This document shows positions 4,770 to 15,947 of a stretch of 64,000 bases of DNA, in pieces. The stretch spans positions 1-64,000 of the forward strand of contig JBBRRY010000018.1 of assembly GCA_038245905.1 (NCBI GenBank), given 5' to 3'. Every line of letters begins with the position of its first letter. The stretch's first letter is position 1. The notes under the pieces are model-generated. The model was not told where the DNA came from and ran no database searches. It saw nothing but the letters and a program-made list of their open reading frames with translations. A program made the position numbers and the translations under genes. This DNA comes from Thermoanaerobaculia bacterium. Its GTDB lineage: Bacteria; Acidobacteriota; Thermoanaerobaculia; UBA5066.

Positions 4770-4874
4770 GGCCCGAACCGGGCCGGAACGGACCCCGGAC
4801 CGCCCGCGACGAAGTAGTTCAAATGGGGGATGGACGTGCCCCCGGGTTGCCGGATGCTCAGGCTGGAGGAAGCC

Positions 4875-6512
4875 GTGTTCGGCATCCCGTTCCATCGGCA
4901 TCTGGGTTTCAAGCTGACGGGCGCCGCGGCGATGGTCTCGCTCGCGACGATTTCGCTGTTCGCGTTCTTCTCGATCCGCTCCCAGCGGGATCATTCCATC
5001 GGCGAGGTCATCCGAGGTGCCGCGCTGTTCTCGAGCACGATCGCGAGCAGCACGCGGGATTTCATGCTCGAGGATCAGCGGCACGACGCCTACCGGATCA
5101 TGGAGAGCATCGGCCGCCTCGAGGGCATCGAGAAGGTCCGCGTCCTGAACAAGGAAGGCCGCATCACGTTCTCGACGAATGCGCGCGACATCGGCGCGTC
5201 GGTCGACAAGGATGCCGAGGCCTGCACGGCGTGCCACGCGGCGGGCCAGCCGATCGTGGCGCCCACGACGTCCGCGCGCAGCCGCCTGTTCCGTTCGAAC
5301 GGCCACCGCGTGCTGGGCATGGTGACGCCCATCTACAACGAGCCGGCCTGCTCGACGGCCGCCTGCCACGCCCACCCGTCCGACAAGCACGTCCTCGGCG
5401 TTGTCGACATCGGCATTTCGCTGAAGGAGATCGACGCGAGCCTGCGCACCCAGTCCCTGCGCCTGGCGGGCGGCGCGCTCGCCGCGGTGGTCGTCCTCGC
5501 CGCGCTCATGAGAGCCGCTGCGCGCCGCATCGTCTTCCGCCCCGTGGCGGAGCTCCTGGAGGCCACGCAGCGCGTCGGTCACGGCGACCTGTCGGCGACG
5601 CTCGCCGTTCGCTCGACGGACGAGCTCGGAATGCTGGCCACCTCGTTCAACGAGATGAACGCGTCGCTCGCCCGAACGCACCGCGACCTCGAGATCCTCA
5701 CCGACGATCTCGAACGTCAGGTGGAGGACCGCACGGCGGCGCTCCGAAGCGCGCACGAGGTCCTCGCGCGCAGTGAGAAGCTGGCCTCGCTCGGCCAGCT
5801 CTCGGCCTCCATCGCGCACGAGATCAACAATCCCCTCGCGGGGATCCTCACGTTTGCTCGCCTCATGACGCGGATGCTCGAGACCGGCCTGCCGGACGAC
5901 GCGACGCGCGCGGCGTGCCTCAAGAACCTGGCGCTCATCCGGAGGGAGTCCGAGCGCTGCACCGTCATCGTCCGGAACCTCCTCGACTTCGCGCGGGTCA
6001 GGCCGCTGGAGCTGAAAGTGTTCGACCCGCTGCTCGCGCTCGAAGAGGCGCTCTCACTCGCGGCGCACAAGATGCAGATCCAGAACATCACGGTCGTGAA
6101 GAAGCTCGAGGGAACGGGTGCCGTGAATGCCGACTTCGGGCAGCTTCGGCAGGCGTTCATGAACATCCTCCTGAACGCGTGCGACGCGATGCCGGGCGGC
6201 GGTACGCTGACGCTCACCTCCCACTTCTTCTCCGGCAGTCGCGAGGTCGAGATCGGTGTCGGCGACACGGGCGCGGGAATGGCGCCCGAGCTCCTCTCGC
6301 GGATTTTCGACCCGTTCTTCACGACGAAAGAGAAGGGTACCGGGCTTGGGCTCTCCGTCGTCTACGGCATCGTCGAGAAGCACGGCGGCTCCATGCGGGT
6401 CGCGAGCGGCGTCGGGAAGGGCACGACGATGACGATCCGGCTCCCTCTCGCCGCCGAGGGCGGCGGGGCCCCGGCGCCTTCCGCGGTGGCCAGGCCGGCC
6501 GCGGCCCCGTGA
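4875..6512 (+). CDS. Sensor histidine kinase with periplasmic heme-c sensor domain, HAMP, HisKA, HATPase
   Basis: TM - periplasmic CTACH and CSTAACH - TM - HAMP (DELGMLATSFN); H-box AHEINNPL; DPFFTTKEKGTGLGL. GGAGG lies 5 nt before GTG 4875. Confidence 0.9.
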   Translation: MFGIPFHRHLGFKLTGAAAMVSLATISLFAFFSIRSQRDHSIGEVIRGAALFSSTIASSTRDFMLEDQRHDAYRIMESIGRLEGIEKVRVLNKEGRITFSTNARDIGASVDKDAEACTACHAAGQPIVAPTTSARSRLFRSNGHRVLGMVTPIYNEPACSTAACHAHPSDKHVLGVVDIGISLKEIDASLRTQSLRLAGGALAAVVVLAALMRAAARRIVFRPVAELLEATQRVGHGDLSATLAVRSTDELGMLATSFNEMNASLARTHRDLEILTDDLERQVEDRTAALRSAHEVLARSEKLASLGQLSASIAHEINNPLAGILTFARLMTRMLETGLPDDATRAACLKNLALIRRESERCTVIVRNLLDFARVRPLELKVFDPLLALEEALSLAAHKMQIQNITVVKKLEGTGAVNADFGQLRQAFMNILLNACDAMPGGGTLTLTSHFFSGSREVEIGVGDTGAGMAPELLSRIFDPFFTTKEKGTGLGLSVVYGIVEKHGGSMRVASGVGKGTTMTIRLPLAAEGGGAPAPSAVARPAAAP

Positions 6513-7093
6513 GCGAGGTCGCCCTGTGGTGGATCGGGACGGGAAACGTCGACCCGGAGCTTCTCGCGGGTGTGCGCGCTCACGTCGAGAGAGTCTTCCG
6601 GTTTCCCGTGCGCCTCGACGTTCCGGCGGGCCGGCCGGAGGAGGCGTTCGACGCCCAGCGGAAGCAGCACTCCTCCCATCGCATCCTCCTGTGGCTCGCG
6701 GCGAACCGGCCACGCGGCGCCGCACGCCTGATCGGCCTGACGGACGCGGACCTCTTCATCCCGGTCCTGACGTTCGTCTTCGGCGAGGCGCAGCTGAAGG
6801 GCCCTGTCGCCGTAGTGTCGACCGCGCGTCTCCTGGGCGCGGGACTTCCCGGCGAGGCGGCCCGCTTCCCGATCCGGTTCCGGACCGAAGTCATTCACGA
6901 GCTCGGGCACACGTTCGGGCTCCTTCACTGCCGCATTCCACGCTGCGCGATGGCGCGCTCGGCGAGCCTTCGGGACGTGGACGCCAAGCAGCCGGACCTC
7001 TGCGAGACGTGCCGGGCCCTGTTCCTCGAGAACGCCTTTGAGATCGGAGAAACCCATGAGCAAGAAGAACACGCGGATCCTGCTGGTCGATGA
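6509..7093 (+). CDS. Archaemetzincin-family zinc metallopeptidase (M54)
   Basis: HELGHTFGLLHC-x4-CAM...CETC and DADLFIPVLTFVFGEAQL. GTGA overlap with the kinase stop; no signal peptide. Confidence 0.88.
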   Translation: MSEVALWWIGTGNVDPELLAGVRAHVERVFRFPVRLDVPAGRPEEAFDAQRKQHSSHRILLWLAANRPRGAARLIGLTDADLFIPVLTFVFGEAQLKGPVAVVSTARLLGAGLPGEAARFPIRFRTEVIHELGHTFGLLHCRIPRCAMARSASLRDVDAKQPDLCETCRALFLENAFEIGETHEQEEHADPAGR

Positions 7094-8426
7094 CGAAGAG
7101 ATCGTGCGGGAGTCCCTCTCGGGCTGGCTCGAGAAGGACGGCTACACGATCGGCACGGCGCCGGACGGCCTCGCGGCCGTCCGGGCCGTGGAAGAGGGCC
7201 GGTGGTCGATTCTCCTCGTGGACCTGAAGATGCCGGGCATCGACGGCCTCGAAGTGCTGAGGCGCGTCAAGGAGAAGAGCCCCGACACCGCCGTCGTCGT
7301 CATGACGGCGTATGCCACCGTCGACACCGCAGTGAACGCCATGAAACTCGGGGCGTTCGACTACATCGTGAAGCCCTTCGACCCTGAGGAGGTCAGCCTC
7401 CTGGTCGAGAAGATCGTCGCGCAGCAGGCGCTCGTGAGGGAGAACGTGATTCTCCGGAAGGCGCTCAAACGCGAGTTCCGGTTCCACGACCTCGTCACGA
7501 AGTCATCGGCGATGCAGGGCACGCTCGAGCTCGCGCGGACCGCCGCGCGCAGCCCCTCGACGATCCTCGTCCTCGGCGAAAGCGGCACGGGCAAGGAGCT
7601 TCTCGCCCGCGCCATCCATGCCGAGAGCCCGCGCCACGACAGACCCTTCGTGGCGATGTCCTGCGCGTCCCTCACGGAGACCCTCCTCGAATCCGAGCTC
7701 TTCGGCTACGAAAAGGGCTCCTTCACGGGCGCGAACGCGCGCCGGGAAGGCAAGTTCGTAGCGGCGAACGGGGGCACCCTTTTTCTCGACGAGATCGGCG
7801 ATATCAGCCCGAAGCTGCAGCTCGACCTCCTGCGCGTCCTCGAAGAACGCCGTGTGACGCGCGTCGGCGGGACGGAATCGATGCCGGTGGACGTTCGCAT
7901 CATTGCCGCGACGAACCGGGATCTCCAGAAGGCCATCGCCGAGGGCCGCTTCCGGGAGGATCTCTTTTATCGGCTGAACGTCATCACGCTCACGCTCGCT
8001 CCGCTCAGGGGCCGCAAGGAGGACATCCCCCTTCTCGTCGACATCCTGCTCGAGCAGCTCGCCGTGGAGATGAAGAAGCCGGTCGAGGGCGTGTCGCCCG
8101 AGGGCATGGCGCTTCTGCTTGCCCACTCCTGGCCGGGCAACGTGCGCGAGCTCAGAAACGTCCTCGAGCGCGGCGTCGTCGTTTCGACGGGGCCGCTCCT
8201 TCTGCCGGCCGATCTGGGCCTCACGCTTCGCGGGGAGGAGGTGCCGTCGCATCCTGCCTCGCTCGCCGAGATCGAACGGCAGCACATCGCCGCGGTGCTC
8301 AGGAACACGGGGGGAAACGTCTCGCAGGCCGCGCGAATCCTCGACATCGACCGCGTGACCCTTTACAGCAAGATCCACAAGTTCGGGCTGAAGCGGGCGG
8401 ACGACGGCGTTTTCGAGCCCGCCTAA
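7056..8426 (+). CDS. Sigma54-dependent response regulator (REC-AAA+-Fis HTH, NtrC/AtoC family)
   Basis: LVDD / DLKMP receiver; GESGTGKE; ESELFGYEKGSFTGA; LFLDEIG; WPGNVRELRN; C-terminal HTH. Confidence 0.95.
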   Translation: MSKKNTRILLVDDEEIVRESLSGWLEKDGYTIGTAPDGLAAVRAVEEGRWSILLVDLKMPGIDGLEVLRRVKEKSPDTAVVVMTAYATVDTAVNAMKLGAFDYIVKPFDPEEVSLLVEKIVAQQALVRENVILRKALKREFRFHDLVTKSSAMQGTLELARTAARSPSTILVLGESGTGKELLARAIHAESPRHDRPFVAMSCASLTETLLESELFGYEKGSFTGANARREGKFVAANGGTLFLDEIGDISPKLQLDLLRVLEERRVTRVGGTESMPVDVRIIAATNRDLQKAIAEGRFREDLFYRLNVITLTLAPLRGRKEDIPLLVDILLEQLAVEMKKPVEGVSPEGMALLLAHSWPGNVRELRNVLERGVVVSTGPLLLPADLGLTLRGEEVPSHPASLAEIERQHIAAVLRNTGGNVSQAARILDIDRVTLYSKIHKFGLKRADDGVFEPA

Positions 8427-8555: not shown

Positions 8556-8570
8556 TGGCGCGGGCATTGC
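8556..8570 (+). promoter_or_regulatory. Sigma54 -24/-12 promoter of the Fe-S/NrfD/GcvH-like operon
   Basis: TGGCGCG-GGCA-TTGC with exact GG-N10-GC spacing, directly downstream of a sigma54 activator gene. Confidence 0.85.
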
Positions 8571-8588
8571 GATGAGACCGATGTTGCC

Positions 8589-8828
8589 ATGAAAGAGACA
8601 TCGACCACCTGCCCGCTCCTCAAAGAAGTCGTGATGCTTTATTGCGACGCCTGCCCGACGAAAAAGATGCTGCCTCTTGACCACCTCGTGTCGGCCCGGC
8701 CCTGTCAGGCGAGCCAATACGAGGACTGCCCCCTGTATCAGGAGGCCGTGAAGAGGCTCGGGACAGGCGCTGCTTACACGGAGCCGCTCGCCCTGGCGGC
8801 GAATGGCTCCGGGAGGGAGGCCCCATGA
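8589..8828 (+). CDS. Small Cys-rich protein (79 aa), first gene of the sigma54 operon
   Basis: CPLL..YCDAC..KKMLP..PC..YEDCPLY (5 Cys); stop overlaps the next ATG (ATGA). Confidence 0.7.
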   Translation: MKETSTTCPLLKEVVMLYCDACPTKKMLPLDHLVSARPCQASQYEDCPLYQEAVKRLGTGAAYTEPLALAANGSGREAP

Positions 8829-8922: not shown

Positions 8923-9834
8923 ATGAAGCTGAATCGCCGGTCTTTGTTCAAGCTCGCCGCCGCCGCCGGAACCGCCGGAGTGGCCGGCGCGGCGGCGACG
9001 TCGCGGGCCTCGGTCCTGCCCGCCTCGAAGGACGCGCGGGGCGTCCTCGTCGATACGACGCGCTGCGTCGGCTGCCGCGCCTGCGAGGCCGCCTGCGCCG
9101 AGGCGAACGCGCTGCCAGGCCCCGAGAAACCCGGGGACGATTCCGTGTTTGCGTCGAAGCGCGCGACGAGCCCCACGGCCTACACGGTCGTCCAGAAGAG
9201 CGCCCTCAAGAGTTCGGCTGGCGACGACCGCTATGCCAAGACGCAGTGCATGCACTGCGTGACGCCCGCCTGCGCCTCGGGATGCGTCGTCAAGGCTCTC
9301 GAGAAAACGCCCGAGGGGCCGGTCGTGTACCACACGGACCGCTGTCTCGGATGCCGCTACTGCATGATCGTGTGCCCCTTCGGAGTTCCGAAGTACGAGT
9401 TTTCGAGCGCGACGCCGCTCGTGAAGAAGTGCACCTTCTGCGCCGAGCGCCAGAAGAAGGGCCTCTCGCCGGCCTGCACCGAGGTCTGCCCCTCGGGCGC
9501 GCTCCAGTTCGGCAAACGCGCCGACCTCCTCGAGGAGGCCAAGACGCGCATCTACACGAACCCCGACAAGTACGTCCACGAGATCTACGGAGAGAGCGAA
9601 GCCGGAGGCACGAGCTGGCTGTACATCTCCGACGTGCCGTTCGCGTCGCTGGCGCTCCCCGCCGGCATCGAGAAGAAATCGTATCCGGAGCTCGCCGACG
9701 GCGCGCTCTCGGCCGTGCCTTTCATCATCACGCTCTGGCCCCCGCTCCTGATGGGCATGTACACCTTCTCGAAGCGCCGCGACGAAGTGGCGGCGGCGGA
9801 AGGCACCGAAAGGCAGGAGGAAGGTCATGTCTGA
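8923..9834 (+). CDS. Tat-exported 4x[4Fe-4S] ferredoxin subunit, HybA/HmcB/NrfC-like, C-terminal TM anchor
   Basis: Tat signal MKLNRRSLFK; 16 Cys in four ferredoxin groups (CVGCRACEAAC, CMHCVTPACASGC, CLGCRYCMIVCP, CTFC..CTEVCP); C-terminal hydrophobic helix. Confidence 0.9.
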   Translation: MKLNRRSLFKLAAAAGTAGVAGAAATSRASVLPASKDARGVLVDTTRCVGCRACEAACAEANALPGPEKPGDDSVFASKRATSPTAYTVVQKSALKSSAGDDRYAKTQCMHCVTPACASGCVVKALEKTPEGPVVYHTDRCLGCRYCMIVCPFGVPKYEFSSATPLVKKCTFCAERQKKGLSPACTEVCPSGALQFGKRADLLEEAKTRIYTNPDKYVHEIYGESEAGGTSWLYISDVPFASLALPAGIEKKSYPELADGALSAVPFIITLWPPLLMGMYTFSKRRDEVAAAEGTERQEEGHV

Positions 9835-11056
9835 GCAGGCGCTGAAACCCGCGTTCCTCGGTGGCACCTGGATGAAGGAGAACGTCTTTCTCGGGATGTC
9901 CTTCCGGGCTTACGTGAAGAGTCTCTTGACTCCCTTCAACGCGATTGCCGCCGCGATCCTTCTCGCCGGAATCCCGACGATGATCTTCCGCTTCTGGAAA
10001 GGTCTCGGCGCGGTGACGAACCTGTCCCAGACGAACCCGTGGGGCATCTGGGTCGCCTTCGACGTCGTGTGCGGCGTCGCGCTCGCGGCGGGCGGCTACA
10101 CGGTCGCCTGCGCTGTCTACATCTTCGGCCAGAAGGCTTACCGGCCGATCCTGCGCCCTGCGATCCTGACCGGCTTCCTCGGTTACGCCCTCGTCCTGTT
10201 CGGGCTCATCGTGGACCTCGGCCAGCCGTGGCGCCTCCCCTATCAGTTCTTCCTGACGCCCGGCACCACGGCGGTCATGTACGAGGTCGGCTGGTGCGTC
10301 TTCCTGTACTTGATGGTCATCGGCCTCGAGTTCGCGCCCGCCTTGCTGGAATGGCTCGGCCTCGTGAAAGTGCGCCGCCTCCTCGGCTCGCTCACGATCG
10401 GCATCATCGTCCTAGGCGTCACCCTCTCGACGCTCCACCAGTCTTCCCTTGGTGCCTTCTTCCTGATGACGCCGGGCAAGCTCCACCCTCTCTGGTACTC
10501 GCCGTTCCTCCCGATCTTCTTCTTCGTCTCCTCGATCGCTGCCGGCATCGGCATGGTGATCGTCGAGAGCGCGCTCTCGCATCGCGCCTTCCACGACCGG
10601 CTCGACCCGGCGGCTCCGGTCGATCTCGACAAAATCACGCTCGGGCTCGCCAAGGGCGGCGCGGTGGTCCTCTTCGCGTACTTCTTCATCCGGCTGCAGG
10701 GCCTCGTCGCGAGCGGCCGCTTCGACCTCCTCGCGACCGGTTGGGGAGCCTGGTACCTCCTCGAGATCCTCGGCTTCATCCTCCTGCCGTCGCTCCTCTT
10801 CGCCTTCGCGGCGCGGCGTCAGAGCGCGCGGTTGGCCCGGGTCGCCGGGCTCCTCACGGTCCTCGGTGTCGTCCTGAACCGCTTCAACGTCTCGCTCATC
10901 GCCTTCAACTGGAACGTCCCGGACCGCTACGTCCCGAGCGCGGGCGAGGTCATCACGTCGCTCACGATCGTGACGATCGGCGTCCTCGTCTTCCGCTGGA
11001 TCGTGGACCGCATGCCGGTCGTGCACGAGCACCCCGACTGGCGCGGCGCGCACTGA
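9827..11056 (+). CDS. NrfD/PsrC-family integral membrane subunit (HybB/HmcC-like)
   Basis: TNLSQTNPWGIWVAFDVVCGVALAAGG, DLGQPWRL, LSTLHQSSLG, KLHPLWYSP; about 10 TM helices. Confidence 0.9.
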   Translation: MSEQALKPAFLGGTWMKENVFLGMSFRAYVKSLLTPFNAIAAAILLAGIPTMIFRFWKGLGAVTNLSQTNPWGIWVAFDVVCGVALAAGGYTVACAVYIFGQKAYRPILRPAILTGFLGYALVLFGLIVDLGQPWRLPYQFFLTPGTTAVMYEVGWCVFLYLMVIGLEFAPALLEWLGLVKVRRLLGSLTIGIIVLGVTLSTLHQSSLGAFFLMTPGKLHPLWYSPFLPIFFFVSSIAAGIGMVIVESALSHRAFHDRLDPAAPVDLDKITLGLAKGGAVVLFAYFFIRLQGLVASGRFDLLATGWGAWYLLEILGFILLPSLLFAFAARRQSARLARVAGLLTVLGVVLNRFNVSLIAFNWNVPDRYVPSAGEVITSLTIVTIGVLVFRWIVDRMPVVHEHPDWRGAH

Positions 11057-11074: not shown

Positions 11075-11740
11075 ATGAACGAACACAGCCTCCTCAGCCC
11101 CTATACCGCGAAGGCCCTCGAATACGGTCTCGCGATCTCCTATCTCGTCCTCTTCGTTCCCTTCTGGCGCTTCGTCCAGGGCGAGACGCCCGCCCACGCC
11201 TTCGGCTTTGGCTGGTTCCAGGTTCCGAACGGGGTCCACCTGCACGCCGGTCACGCCTGGGCGCGGCCCGAGGGCGGCACGGTGGAAGTCGGCCTCGACG
11301 ACTTCGCGCACAAGCTCTTGGGCCCCATGGACCAGATCTTCCTGCCTCCGATCGGAGCGCCGGTGCGGCAGGGACAGAAGGCGTTTTCCCTCATGGCCGG
11401 AGGCCAGGAGCTCGACGTGCTCTCGCCGGTCGACGGCCACGTCGTCGCGGTGAACGAGACGGCCCGCGCGCATCCCGGCGATGCGCTCCGCGACCCATAC
11501 GGCGCGGGTTGGCTCATGAAGGTCGAACCCCGCTGGCTGACCGGCAACCTCAAGAACCTCTTCACAGGCGAGGGAGCCCGCCGTTTCCTCGACGCCGCGG
11601 CCGGGAAGCTCGCCCAGCGCCTGACGCCTCAGCTCGGGGTGGTTCTGCAGGACGGCGGCACTCCGGTCCACGGCATCGCCCGGGCCCTCGACCCGGATCA
11701 CTGGGACGAGCTGGCCCGCCGGTTCCTGGGCGGAAAGTGA
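11075..11740 (+). CDS. Membrane-anchored GcvH-fold protein lacking the lipoyl lysine (copy 1)
   Basis: HAWA..VEVGLDDFA..SPVDGHVVAVN..DPYGAGWLMKV H-protein pattern; the ESVK hairpin is replaced by MAGG; N-terminal TM helix. Confidence 0.85.
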   Translation: MNEHSLLSPYTAKALEYGLAISYLVLFVPFWRFVQGETPAHAFGFGWFQVPNGVHLHAGHAWARPEGGTVEVGLDDFAHKLLGPMDQIFLPPIGAPVRQGQKAFSLMAGGQELDVLSPVDGHVVAVNETARAHPGDALRDPYGAGWLMKVEPRWLTGNLKNLFTGEGARRFLDAAAGKLAQRLTPQLGVVLQDGGTPVHGIARALDPDHWDELARRFLGGK

Positions 11741-11750
11741 GCCTCACGTC

Positions 11751-12101
11751 ATGAGACACGTCCGTCTGTCGGCCATTCTCCTGACGCTCGGGCTCACCGT
11801 CACGGTTCTCGGGGGCGGCCTCCCCCGCCTTCCGAAGGACCGCACTCTCCCTCAGGGAGACGGCAGCCCAGGCGTCGTGACCTTCCGCCACGCGAGCCAC
11901 GTCGACGGCACGAAGCCAGACTGCACGACGTGCCATCCGGCGCTCTTTTCGATCCTGCCTCCGTCCTCGACGCGCGCGGCCCTCGCGCTCAAACACGCCG
12001 ACATGGAAAAGGGTGCGGCGTGCGGGAAATGCCACGACGGCAAGAGCGCCCACGGATTCGAGGACTGCGCGACCTGTCACGCGGTACCGAAAGAAAGGTG
12101 A
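11751..12101 (+). CDS. Periplasmic triheme c7-type cytochrome
   Basis: Signal peptide; VTFRHASH; three CxxCH motifs (CTTCH, CGKCH, CATCH). Confidence 0.9.
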   Translation: MRHVRLSAILLTLGLTVTVLGGGLPRLPKDRTLPQGDGSPGVVTFRHASHVDGTKPDCTTCHPALFSILPPSSTRAALALKHADMEKGAACGKCHDGKSAHGFEDCATCHAVPKER

Positions 12102-12106
12102 GCATC

Positions 12107-12820
12107 ATGGAAGCCCTCCTCGCGCTGCTTACGGGAGTCGCCATCTTCGTGGTCGGCCTCCTGGCCCGGCTTCTCTTCCTCGTCGCCTTCGTCGCGGTCG
12201 CCATCGTGCCGGTCCTTGCGGCATGGGGGCTCTATTACGCGGCGGAAAAAACCCTCCTGTGGCTGAAGGCCCGCCGCCTCGGACTCGTGGAAGTCGAGGG
12301 GCTCCTTCTGGCTGAGAACCGGCGCTACGCACCCGCGCACACATGGCTCGACGAAGAGCACGGCGGCCGCCTGCGAGTAGGCCTCGACGATCTCGCCGGA
12401 CACCTCGTGCATGGCGTCACGGCCGTCACCTTGCCGCAGCCTGGCAGCACGATCGCCGCCGGCCGTCCCGCCGTGACGATCGCCTGCGGTGCCCGCACCG
12501 CCGTCATTGCGGCTCCGGTGACCGGGACGATCGTCGCCGTGAACGCGCGCGTCGGGAATCACCCGACGCTCCTCCGTTTGTCCCCGTACGAGAAGGGGTG
12601 GCTGTTCACGGTGCGTCCGGCGTCGGACGCCTATCGCAGCTTCCCGATCGGTCTCGAGGCACGAGCGTGGTTCCGCGGCGAGGAGGCGCGTCTCTCGCGC
12701 TTTTTCGAAGGCGAGCTCGGGCTTGCCGCTGCGGACGGCGGCGAGCTCATTCTGCCGCCGTCGGTTCTCCTGTCCGAGGAAAAGTGGCGACAGGCCGTTT
12801 CGTCTTTCCTCGAGGCCTGA
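12107..12820 (+). CDS. Membrane-anchored GcvH-fold protein lacking the lipoyl lysine (copy 2)
   Basis: Long N-terminal hydrophobic segment; HTWL..LRVGLDDLA..APVTGTIVAVN..SPYEKGWLF; hairpin ACGA in place of ESVK. Alternative start GTG 12098. Confidence 0.85.
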   Translation: MEALLALLTGVAIFVVGLLARLLFLVAFVAVAIVPVLAAWGLYYAAEKTLLWLKARRLGLVEVEGLLLAENRRYAPAHTWLDEEHGGRLRVGLDDLAGHLVHGVTAVTLPQPGSTIAAGRPAVTIACGARTAVIAAPVTGTIVAVNARVGNHPTLLRLSPYEKGWLFTVRPASDAYRSFPIGLEARAWFRGEEARLSRFFEGELGLAAADGGELILPPSVLLSEEKWRQAVSSFLEA

Positions 12821-12849: not shown

Positions 12850-12877
12850 AAGGCCGCCCTCCTGGGCGGCCTTTTTT
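12850..12877 (+). terminator. Intrinsic terminator closing the sigma54 operon
   Basis: AAGGCCGCCC-TCCT-GGGCGGCCTT followed by a T run. Confidence 0.9.
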
Positions 12878-12923
12878 CCGTCTTTCTGTCAAAATCGGCG
12901 GTTCGAAAGAAGGAGACTCACCC

Positions 12924-13763
12924 ATGCGTCGAACCGTTCTCGTCCTCGTCCTCGCCCTCACCGCCGCCTGTGGACAGAAGCCCGCGGCCCCCGCGGCCGA
13001 GAAGCCGGCCGCCGCGCCCGCGGCCGCCGCCGTTCACCAGGCTCCCCAGCCGGCGCTGACGAGTGTTTCGGGCACGGTCGAGGAGACCCTCGACGCCTCC
13101 GACTACACGTACATGCGCCTCAAGACGAACGGCGGCGGCGAGACCTGGGCCGCCATTACGAAGGCGAAGATCCAGAAGGGCGACCACGTCACGGTCGTGA
13201 ACGCGATGTCGATGGACGGCTTCGAAAGCAAGACGCTGAACCGAAAGTTCGACCACATCGTGTTCGGCAGCCTCGGAGACGGAAAGGCGGGCACGCCTCC
13301 GGCGCCTGTCTCGGCGCACGGCGCCGCGGCCGACACGCCGAAGGATGCACCGATGGCCGCGCCGCACGCCTCCGTCTCGGACGTCAAGGCGGACGCGATG
13401 GACATGAAGGTCGCGAAGGCCGAAGGGAAGGACGCTTACACGATCGCGCAGGTCTTCGCCGACCGCGCGAAGCTGAAGGACAGGATCGTGACCGTGCGCG
13501 GCAAGGTCGTGAAGGCGAACGGCGGCATCATGGGCCGCAACTGGTACCACATCCGCGACGGCTCGGGCTCGCACGAGAAGAAGGACGACGACCTGACCGT
13601 GACGTCCAACGACGCCGCGGTCGTCGGCGACGTCGTCGTCGTGAAGGGCGTCGTCCACGTCGAAAAGGACTTCGGCGCCGGCTACCAGTATCCCGTCGTC
13701 CTCGAGGACGCGAAGGTCACGAAAGAGCCGGCCTCGACACGGGTGGAGGCGTCGCGGCCGTAG
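12924..13763 (+). CDS. Lipoprotein with NrfJ-like and OB-fold domains
   Basis: AAGGAG SD; lipobox LTAAC; GTVEETLDASDYTY..WAA..FESKTLNRKFDHIVF; IMGRNWYHIRDGSG..KDFGAGYQY. Confidence 0.7.
   Translation: MRRTVLVLVLALTAACGQKPAAPAAEKPAAAPAAAAVHQAPQPALTSVSGTVEETLDASDYTYMRLKTNGGGETWAAITKAKIQKGDHVTVVNAMSMDGFESKTLNRKFDHIVFGSLGDGKAGTPPAPVSAHGAAADTPKDAPMAAPHASVSDVKADAMDMKVAKAEGKDAYTIAQVFADRAKLKDRIVTVRGKVVKANGGIMGRNWYHIRDGSGSHEKKDDDLTVTSNDAAVVGDVVVVKGVVHVEKDFGAGYQYPVVLEDAKVTKEPASTRVEASRP

Positions 13764-13793: not shown

Positions 13794-15947
<2,154 letters not shown>

Follow-up and report, generated by a model that had tools for sequence, protein, structure and literature searches.

Several described systems come close to the locus reported here. 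Hmc (HmcABCDEF) and Nhc (NhcABCDE-type) of Desulfovibrio are one such group, and in Hmc the subunits include the 16-haem HmcA, the cytochrome b HmcE and the CCG protein HmcF. The N-terminal barrel-sandwich domains of RnfC/RsxC and NqrA are lipoyl-like domains without the modified lysine, found on the side of membrane redox complexes that faces the cytoplasm. In PspA-PspF and ZraP-ZraSR, a product of the target operon modulates its own sigma-54 system. An H-protein-like protein has also been recruited to a redox system beyond glycine cleavage, as described for LbpA of sHdr sulfur oxidation in the consulted sections of PMC6067878. Here we describe two proteins, Gh1 and Gh2, encoded on a stretch of 64,000 nucleotides from a Thermoanaerobaculia bacterium (Acidobacteriota; contig JBBRRY010000018.1, positions 1 to 64,000, forward strand), which as a whole is called the window below. 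They have the fold of H proteins, yet the defining lysine, the curated cut-offs and the gene context set them apart from both glycine cleavage H protein (GcvH; PF01597, TIGR00527) and LbpA. This is a new form of a known fold in an apparently undescribed and widespread gene cassette. As to their role, we give about an even chance to the proposal that Gh1 and Gh2 are lipoate-free cytoplasmic subunits of a sigma-54-induced, Hmc/Nhc-like membrane module, acting as an adaptor to a cassette of histidine kinase, sigma-54 activator and Peptidase_M54 (M54) zinc peptidase. The two genes are:

11075..11740, forward strand: Gh1 (Pfam GCV_H, E = 1.4e-17 over residues 59-172)
12107..12820, forward strand: Gh2 (Pfam GCV_H, E = 4e-19)

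The initial annotation had presented this span as two membrane-anchored GcvH paralogues that share a C-terminal extension and have both lost the lipoylated lysine. Both genes do encode the GCV_H fold, but a third gene, for a triheme cytochrome c7 (11751-12101), lies between them. The start of Gh2, formerly placed within 11930-12106, had to be moved to the ATG at 12107 as read from the DNA; the longer open reading frame (ORF) from 11930 overlaps the c7 gene. Gapless phmmer alignments to solved H proteins bore out the loss of the lysine, the lipoyl-lysine column being G110 in Gh1 (nt 11402-11404; aligned to 1onl) and A129 in Gh2 (nt 12491-12493; aligned to E. coli 3a7a/3a8i), with Cys127 of Gh2 (nt 12485-12487) two residues before A129. 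Gh1 was modelled with AlphaFold2 from 93 sequences (predicted local distance difference test, pLDDT, 86.5; predicted template modelling score, pTM, 0.75), and Foldseek aligned the model with the H-protein structures 1onl, 1htp and 3ab9 at a template modelling score of 0.91 and a root-mean-square deviation of 1.5-1.7 Å over about 127 columns. Neither hairpin tip, in Gh1 or in Gh2, holds a lysine. In Gh1 a membrane helix (residues 9-35) is followed by the H-protein fold (about 56-174) and the C-terminal extension (175-221); Gh2 has a hydrophobic N-terminus (about 3-45), then the H-protein fold and its own C-terminal extension. These results support the view that Gh1 and Gh2 are non-lipoylatable H-protein folds.

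Gh shares with GcvH the barrel-sandwich fold and the core motifs H-x-W, G-x-D-D and P-Y-x-x-G-W-L, at 24-32% identity to H proteins. It differs from GcvH in lacking the lipoyl lysine, in scoring 57.5 (Gh1) and 58.1 bits (Gh2) against TIGR00527, about half of the equivalog cut-off of 115.85, in adding a membrane anchor and the extension with its Asp-Gly-Gly (DGG) motif, and in having its genes beside HmcB/HmcC-like and c7 genes instead of gcvT and gcvP. A canonical GcvH with E-S-V-K is encoded on contig C11 of the same genome, flanked by gcvT- and gcvP-looking ORFs (both judged by eye). With LbpA, Gh has in common the use of an H-protein-like fold in a redox system beyond glycine cleavage; however, LbpA is soluble and lipoylated on a conserved lysine, whereas Gh has no such lysine and there is no sHdr/Hdr-like gene in its operon.

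The loss of the lysine extends through the family. Among 1993 candidates, 881 were homologues of Gh1 at E <= 0.001, nearly all labelled glycine cleavage H protein at their source, and a full-library search with Gh2 gave 3676 matches at E <= 0.001, true GcvH included, with 64 cluster representatives at E <= 1e-30; the ESM Atlas returned only GCV_H clusters for Gh1. In the 119 homologues collected with Gh1, the lipoyl-lysine column is occupied by G (74), E (25), D (9), S (4), A (3), H (2) and single others, never by lysine, and in the 138 collected with Gh2 the eight commonest residues are G (50), D (24), E (10), A (10), N (9), R (8), T (6) and P (4). We also took a census of the 165 Gh/GcvH-like genes on all fetched loci, of which 119 carry the extension motif with its GG and 23 the canonical E-[ST]-x-K. 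A lysine stood in the canonical column of three of the 119 extension-bearing genes, in the E-[ST]-x-K context in none, and the extension was present in none of the 23 canonical genes; in these sequences, then, extension and lipoylation motif are mutually exclusive. The non-lipoylated state suggested at first is upheld by these counts, and the word scaffold used with it fits the evidence. Records titled Anaeromyxobacter, Desulfobacterales, Thermodesulfobacteriota and Deltaproteobacteria hold Gh with the extension as well.

The lost catalytic lysine is what speaks for taking these genes as functionless, decaying duplicates of gcvH. That candidate was ruled out by the intact frames, the hundreds of homologues across phyla, the invariant new motifs and the conserved synteny, and we regard its probability as practically negligible.

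Another explanation would keep a carrier function without lipoate, either as a persulfide on the hairpin cysteine of Gh2, as had been proposed, or as a modified lysine or arginine beside the tip. Cys127 is indeed kept in the close orthologues (at least 51% identity, and in L031), and the column after the tip is mostly basic (58 K and 42 R among the 119 Gh1-search homologues, 77 R and 23 K among the 138 collected with Gh2). However, the cysteine occurs in just 43 of the 138 Gh2-search homologues and gives way to S, N, V, T, A or G in same-operon orthologues at 37-47% identity, so that it is a lineage-specific feature and the proposed thiol or persulfide site did not hold up. The lysine after the tip alternates with arginine, which is not acylatable in the same way, the window proteins have Gln (Gh1) and Arg (Gh2) at this position, and Gh1 is without any cysteine. 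An alternative carrier of this sort seems very unlikely to us.

The extension of about 50 residues at the C-terminus is common to both proteins, as first described, and contains a near-invariant DGG (codons at nt 11651-11659 in Gh1 and 12734-12742 in Gh2). Comparison of the two paralogue alignments by hhalign gave E = 1e-46 over 185 columns, running through the extension, with DGG placed on DGG and the C-terminal Trp on Trp. The invariant positions of the Gh1-type alignment (93 sequences) are H57, G59, H60, W62, G73, D75, P118, G121, W146, D193, G194, G195 and W210, and in the Gh2-type alignment (63 sequences) A209-D210-G211-G212 is at least 90% conserved. The DGG loop, invariant yet poorly modelled, would fit a partner-binding or processing site.

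Natural fusions and charge distributions bear on the orientation of the Gh domains. Three proteins (P0271-P0273) consist of four CXXCH motifs, then a single hydrophobic helix and then a complete Gh domain with DGG. The c-type cytochromes mature outside the cytoplasm. With the cytochrome part outside and one intervening helix, the Gh domain is strongly expected to face the cytoplasm. The mean number of lysines plus arginines is 0.33 on the N-terminal side of the helix against 2.85 on the C-terminal side for Gh1-type sequences (66 of 93 with a detected helix), and 0.67 against 3.23 for Gh2-type sequences (60 of 63). P0252, made of a receiver domain, a unit with four conserved cysteines (4-Cys unit; see below) and a Gh domain, has no membrane helix. 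The N-terminal anchors of the initial annotation were found as helices in both proteins, although that of Gh1 is only moderately hydrophobic, being modelled as a helix at residues 9-35 by AlphaFold2 and not flagged by a Kyte-Doolittle window.

The N-terminus of Gh1 is the sole part of the family that matches anything beyond H-protein-like models. The NCBIfam model HmcD, for the small membrane subunit whose gene follows hmcC, matches 22 of the 93 Gh1-type members at E <= 1 (best 2.5e-5), and this is suggestive of a resemblance between the Gh1 anchor and HmcD. As a separate observation, in four proteins (P0260, P0229, P0267 and P0213) Gh is preceded by a long N-terminal domain, rich in helices and of 150-430 residues, that has no Pfam match, P0260 having in addition a C-x13-C-x6-C-x2-C unit.

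The G+C content of the window is 68%. The other features of the locus, in the order in which they are found, are:

4830..6512, forward strand: sensor histidine kinase (Pfam HAMP, HisKA, HATPase_c)
6509..7093, forward strand: archaemetzincin-like zinc peptidase (Peptidase_M54, PF07998, E = 2.3e-17)
7038..8426, forward strand: sigma-54-dependent response regulator (Pfam Response_reg 2.3e-31, Sigma54_activat 2.2e-70, HTH_8 9.4e-14)
8556..8571, forward strand: sigma-54 -24/-12-like promoter element TGGC-N7-TTGC (pattern match with 2 mismatches)
8589..8828, forward strand: 4-Cys mini-protein of 79 residues, first gene of the operon (no Pfam or NCBIfam match)
8923..9834, forward strand: HmcB/HybA-like periplasmic four-cluster Fe-S protein (NCBIfam HmcB 352.4 bits, HybA 244 bits; Pfam Fer4_11)
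9827..11056, forward strand: HmcC/HybB-like membrane protein of the NrfD family, without redox cofactor (HmcC 514.6 bits, HybB 279 bits; Pfam NrfD 1.2e-19)
11751..12101, forward strand: triheme cytochrome c7 (Pfam Cytochrome_C7 1.2e-12; NCBIfam triheme domain 61.9 bits, cut-off 40)
12852..12877, forward strand: GC hairpin followed by a T run at the end of the operon, resembling an intrinsic terminator (read from the sequence)

Six genes thus form the operon, in the order 4-Cys mini-protein, HmcB-like, HmcC-like, Gh1, c7 and Gh2, separated by 94, -8, 18, 10 and 5 bases, and the kinase, M54 peptidase and response regulator genes lie upstream on the same strand. The regulator has receiver, AAA+ and Fis-type helix-turn-helix domains, and its true start may be an ATG 18 bases further in. 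The promoter element lies 18 bases upstream of the 4-Cys gene. In 19 of 20 related loci the pattern GG[CT]-N7-TTGC precedes the 4-Cys gene, where 0.015 are expected per 160 nt from the rate of the pattern in the window; a strict sigma-54 consensus recovered the element in just 6 of the 20. In 8 loci with a different arrangement, the same pattern was found before the Gh genes only once (L033). The presence of this element before the 4-Cys gene, in the window and in the 19 loci, argues that the operon is likely a target of the adjacent sigma-54 activator. Contigs from 4 soil metatranscriptome runs (2 studies) cover parts of the operon including Gh1 and Gh2, and one of them holds sequence upstream of the promoter; most are just 90-95% alike and so come from relatives, and such libraries are no proof of transcription. 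Past the terminator there is a lipoprotein-like ORF (12921-13763, forward strand) with a signal containing a cysteine and an Ala/Pro-rich linker, without Pfam or NCBIfam match and with 64-86% identity to close relatives only, and then on the opposite strand a Ser/Thr protein kinase with C-terminal TPR repeats (13794-15947).

The products of the neighbouring genes were examined for motifs and family membership. In the histidine kinase an outer domain of about 155 residues lies between two membrane helices, and HAMP-HisKA-HATPase follows. The outer domain contains a CXXCH (residue 132) and a CX4CH (residue 174), and 29 of the 30 relatives aligned, at identities down to 34%, retain both. This suggests that the kinase is a haem-based periplasmic redox sensor. 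The GTG start of the M54 gene overlaps the kinase stop codon by 4 bases, and its product scores 64.1 bits against PF07998 (cut-off 24.4). It has the motif HExxHxxGxxHC-x4-CxM-x16-CxxC, with x16 where the archaemetzincin consensus in the consulted part of PMC3427221 has x17. In the 4-Cys protein C8, C19, C39 and C47 are invariant in 17 sequences; its AlphaFold2 model was moderate (pLDDT 63, pTM 0.35), Foldseek found nothing in the PDB at E <= 0.001, a profile search of PDB sequences gave only matches at E > 1, and the ESM Atlas gave unnamed clusters only. The 4-Cys unit is fused to Gh in P0195, P0227, P0245 and P0252, and these fusions make it probable that Gh binds the 4-Cys protein, itself a presumptive metal-binding protein. 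Proteins with two Gh domains in tandem also occur naturally (P0216, P0197), and because of them a Gh1-Gh2 heterodimer, as first suspected, is plausible.

The HmcB-like protein has a twin-arginine signal, RRSLFK (read from the sequence), and a C-terminal helix at 261-279, the HmcC-like protein has 10 hydrophobic segments by hydropathy, and c7 has an N-terminal signal or anchor and CXXCH motifs at residues 58, 91 and 106. The c7 gene is optional in relatives, with no match in L006 (where the locus ends soon after the Gh genes), L009, L025 and L031. HmcB and HmcC are the best-scoring families for the two proteins, both below cut-off (352.4 against 420 and 514.6 against 550). Among the six operon genes, scanned with Pfam, NCBIfam and motifs, there was no cytochrome b (HmcE), no CCG protein (HmcF) and no 16-haem HmcA. 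What the window has in common with Hmc and Nhc is an HmcB-like and HmcC-like pair near equivalog level, a periplasmic multihaem cytochrome and, encoded directly after HmcC, a helix that may be HmcD-like. It differs in having a 3-haem c7 instead of a 16- or 9-haem cytochrome, in that this helix carries an H-protein-fold domain, in the addition of a second Gh and of the 4-Cys protein, and in its sigma-54 control. Judged by these sequences, the membrane module is nearest to Hmc/Nhc, yet fails membership by its sub-cut-off scores and by having no HmcA, HmcE or HmcF. With neither cytochrome b nor CCG protein there is no obvious electron path to the cytoplasm, and this, together with the absence of cysteine from Gh1, argues that the Gh domains are not redox carriers.

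Perhaps Gh is purely structural or gating, capping the cytoplasmic face of the HmcC-like protein (for example at its proposed proton half-channel) or stabilising assembly, while kinase, activator and M54 only regulate the operon. The Gh1 gene directly follows that of HmcC, starting 18 bases past it, the anchor may be HmcD-like, HmcB or HmcC is present at 22 of 26 well-flanked loci (defined below), and cofactor-less barrel-sandwich domains are known in cytoplasmic subunits of membrane redox complexes. Weak matches at E <= 1 were found to RsxC in 13 of the 93 Gh1-type members (best 0.012) and to NqrA in 4 of 93 (best 0.039). The window Gh1 itself had no match to the RnfC/NqrA models at E <= 1, and Foldseek gave a marginal E = 0.13 between its model and NqrA (4u9o). 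RnfC and NqrA differ from Gh in being large multidomain subunits without the DGG extension, and the likeness in sequence and structure is marginal. Against a purely structural role, kinase, activator and M54 are kept at loci that have no HmcBC (L034, L037, L038, L066, L071, L073, L074 and L082), the Gh proteins there are soluble and fused to Cys-rich domains, and P0252 is fused to a receiver domain. We consider the purely structural explanation unlikely.

The conservation of the cassette was assessed on 36 genome and 79 metagenome loci, 81 of which hold a Gh gene with the extension, and on the 26 well-flanked loci that have at least 4 kilobases on both sides. In the well-flanked set the features were present as follows, where the tblastn matches to kinase and regulator could stem from unrelated members of those large families:

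sigma-54 regulator: 25 of 26 loci
M54 peptidase: 24 of 26 loci
histidine kinase: 24 of 26 loci
HmcB or HmcC: 22 of 26 loci
at least two Gh genes: 19 of 26 loci
4-Cys gene: 16 of 26 loci
c7: 15 of 26 loci

We also sampled 301 Acidobacteriota genomes, calling Gh with extension at E <= 1e-25, a profile end of at least 217 of 231 and no stops; one of them, G152, counts in the denominators only. Gh with extension was present in 60 and M54 in 96 genomes, both together in 59, Gh only in 1 and M54 only in 37, that is, M54 in 59 of the 60 Gh-bearing genomes against 37 of the 241 others, an association that any test would overstate, related genomes not being independent. M54 is a rare family in bacteria, and in a control set of 14 genomes it was confined to the 3 archaea. 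Beside these counts, genomes of family f40 (e.g. G036, G052, G066 and G127) gave strong matches to the H-protein part only (profile 46-196), without the extension; these sit in open frames of 376-489 residues and may represent another fused GcvH-like architecture.

Loci without HmcBC have a different content. In eight of them (L034, L037, L038, L064, L066, L071, L073 and L082) a PAS/GAF kinase gene is followed by those of the activator, M54 and Gh, and all eight have a soluble Gh with two C-x12/13-C-x5/6-C-x2-C units; L074 is likewise without HmcBC and keeps kinase, activator and M54. This retention and the receiver fusion lead us to think that the core role of Gh is regulatory or adaptor-like within the cassette, the respiratory module being an add-on in Acidobacteriota and Myxococcota.

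Some further features of these loci were recorded. In L074 (6815-14110) there are four tandem Gh paralogues, of which two have CxxC...CxxC in the N-terminus. Behind them come genes for a Pyr_redox_2 protein, for a DUF1641 protein and for a B12-binding radical SAM enzyme. An HdrD-like CCG/4Fe-4S protein adjoins the Cys-rich Gh in L064 (1951-3105). CxxCxxCC (PF03692) putative zinc- or iron-chelating proteins are encoded near HmcBC-less cassettes in L071 (7695-9222, two genes) and L074 (23-802), and a nitroreductase-family gene lies nearby in L074 and also in L060.

The near-constant company of M54, seen across phyla, raises a proteolytic switch, in which the archaemetzincin would cut Gh in or near the DGG loop and so release or inactivate a Gh-based inhibitor or co-activator of the sigma-54 regulator. 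Besides the 59 of 60 genomes and 24 of 26 loci, the co-transcription of M54 with the regulators, suggested by the 4-base overlap with the kinase gene, and the position of the invariant DGG in the least confidently modelled stretch are consistent with this. However, the tail past DGG is conserved (W210 is invariant) and modelled at a pLDDT of about 90, unlike a discarded propeptide, and 37 genomes have M54 and no detected Gh. Cleavage is hypothetical, the archaemetzincin literature naming no physiological substrate in the sections consulted. We hold such a switch to be quite unlikely.

In the adaptor proposal, the periplasmic HmcB-like Fe-S protein, the HmcC-like quinone-site protein and usually c7 would make up a quinone:cytochrome c module without catalytic subunit. 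The HmcD-like helix would hold Gh1 beside HmcC, Gh1 would probably pair with Gh2, to which the tandem proteins and the frequent doubling of the Gh gene point, and the two together with the 4-Cys protein would form a cofactor-poor, putatively metal-binding adaptor in the cytoplasm. This adaptor would be the conserved output of the kinase/sigma-54 activator/M54 cassette, and would likely couple or report the state of the module to the cassette, as feedback or adaptor, without carrying a swinging-arm group. In the way it may work, Gh comes nearest to RnfC and NqrA with their lipoyl-like domains that have no modified lysine. PspA and ZraP offer a likeness, with a sigma-54 activator that has a dedicated small target operon and a non-enzymatic, membrane-associated product. 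They have no sequence or fold relationship to Gh, for which feedback is hypothetical.

Several points weigh against this proposal, in addition to the reservations given with the tblastn matches and the genome association. The steps from co-encoded to binds and from binds to regulates are our inference, and any binding of Gh to HmcC, to Gh2 or to the 4-Cys protein, and likewise to the regulator or peptidase, is putative. Many loci have Gh without HmcBC, so that Gh must do more than serve as a subunit of the complex. The adjacency of kinase and activator may mean only that they regulate the operon. The anchor of the window Gh1 (residues 13-36) matches HmcD (NF045712) weakly, at E = 0.095 and 12.7 bits against a cut-off of 34, and 71 of the 93 family members have no HmcD match at E <= 1. 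Confidence in the model is low over the DGG stretch (residues 181-200, pLDDT about 60), for which no counterpart is known; Foldseek of the Gh1 model against the PDB gave no match that extends past the H-protein core.

Literature searches, which did not cover subscription journals, gave no paper in which a GcvH-like protein is linked to NrfD, HybA, Hmc, sigma-54 or archaemetzincin. Nothing on such subunits came from term searches in the consulted parts of PMC11492766 and PMC8076601, and PMC5701242, in the part consulted, deals with canonical glycine cleavage genes only. The Gh family and its operon are apparently undescribed.

Where such genes carry the label glycine cleavage system protein H, predictions of glycine cleavage and of lipoate metabolism are inflated for the anaerobes of soils and sediments. 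The family serves as a marker of a quinone-linked cytochrome module, so far unstudied, of a type used for periplasmic or extracellular electron transfer, and is a case of an old carrier fold reused without its cofactor. A bolder proposal, which we hold to be distinctly improbable, is that Gh is the dedicated effector of the kinase/sigma-54 activator/archaemetzincin cassette, with M54 processing the DGG loop and thereby tuning the activator, and the HmcD-like helix welding Gh to the quinone:cytochrome c module in Acidobacteriota and Myxococcota. If this were true, a single protein would couple respiratory electron flow to gene expression, and Gh would be the first physiological substrate of an archaemetzincin and would give the H-protein fold a role in signalling.

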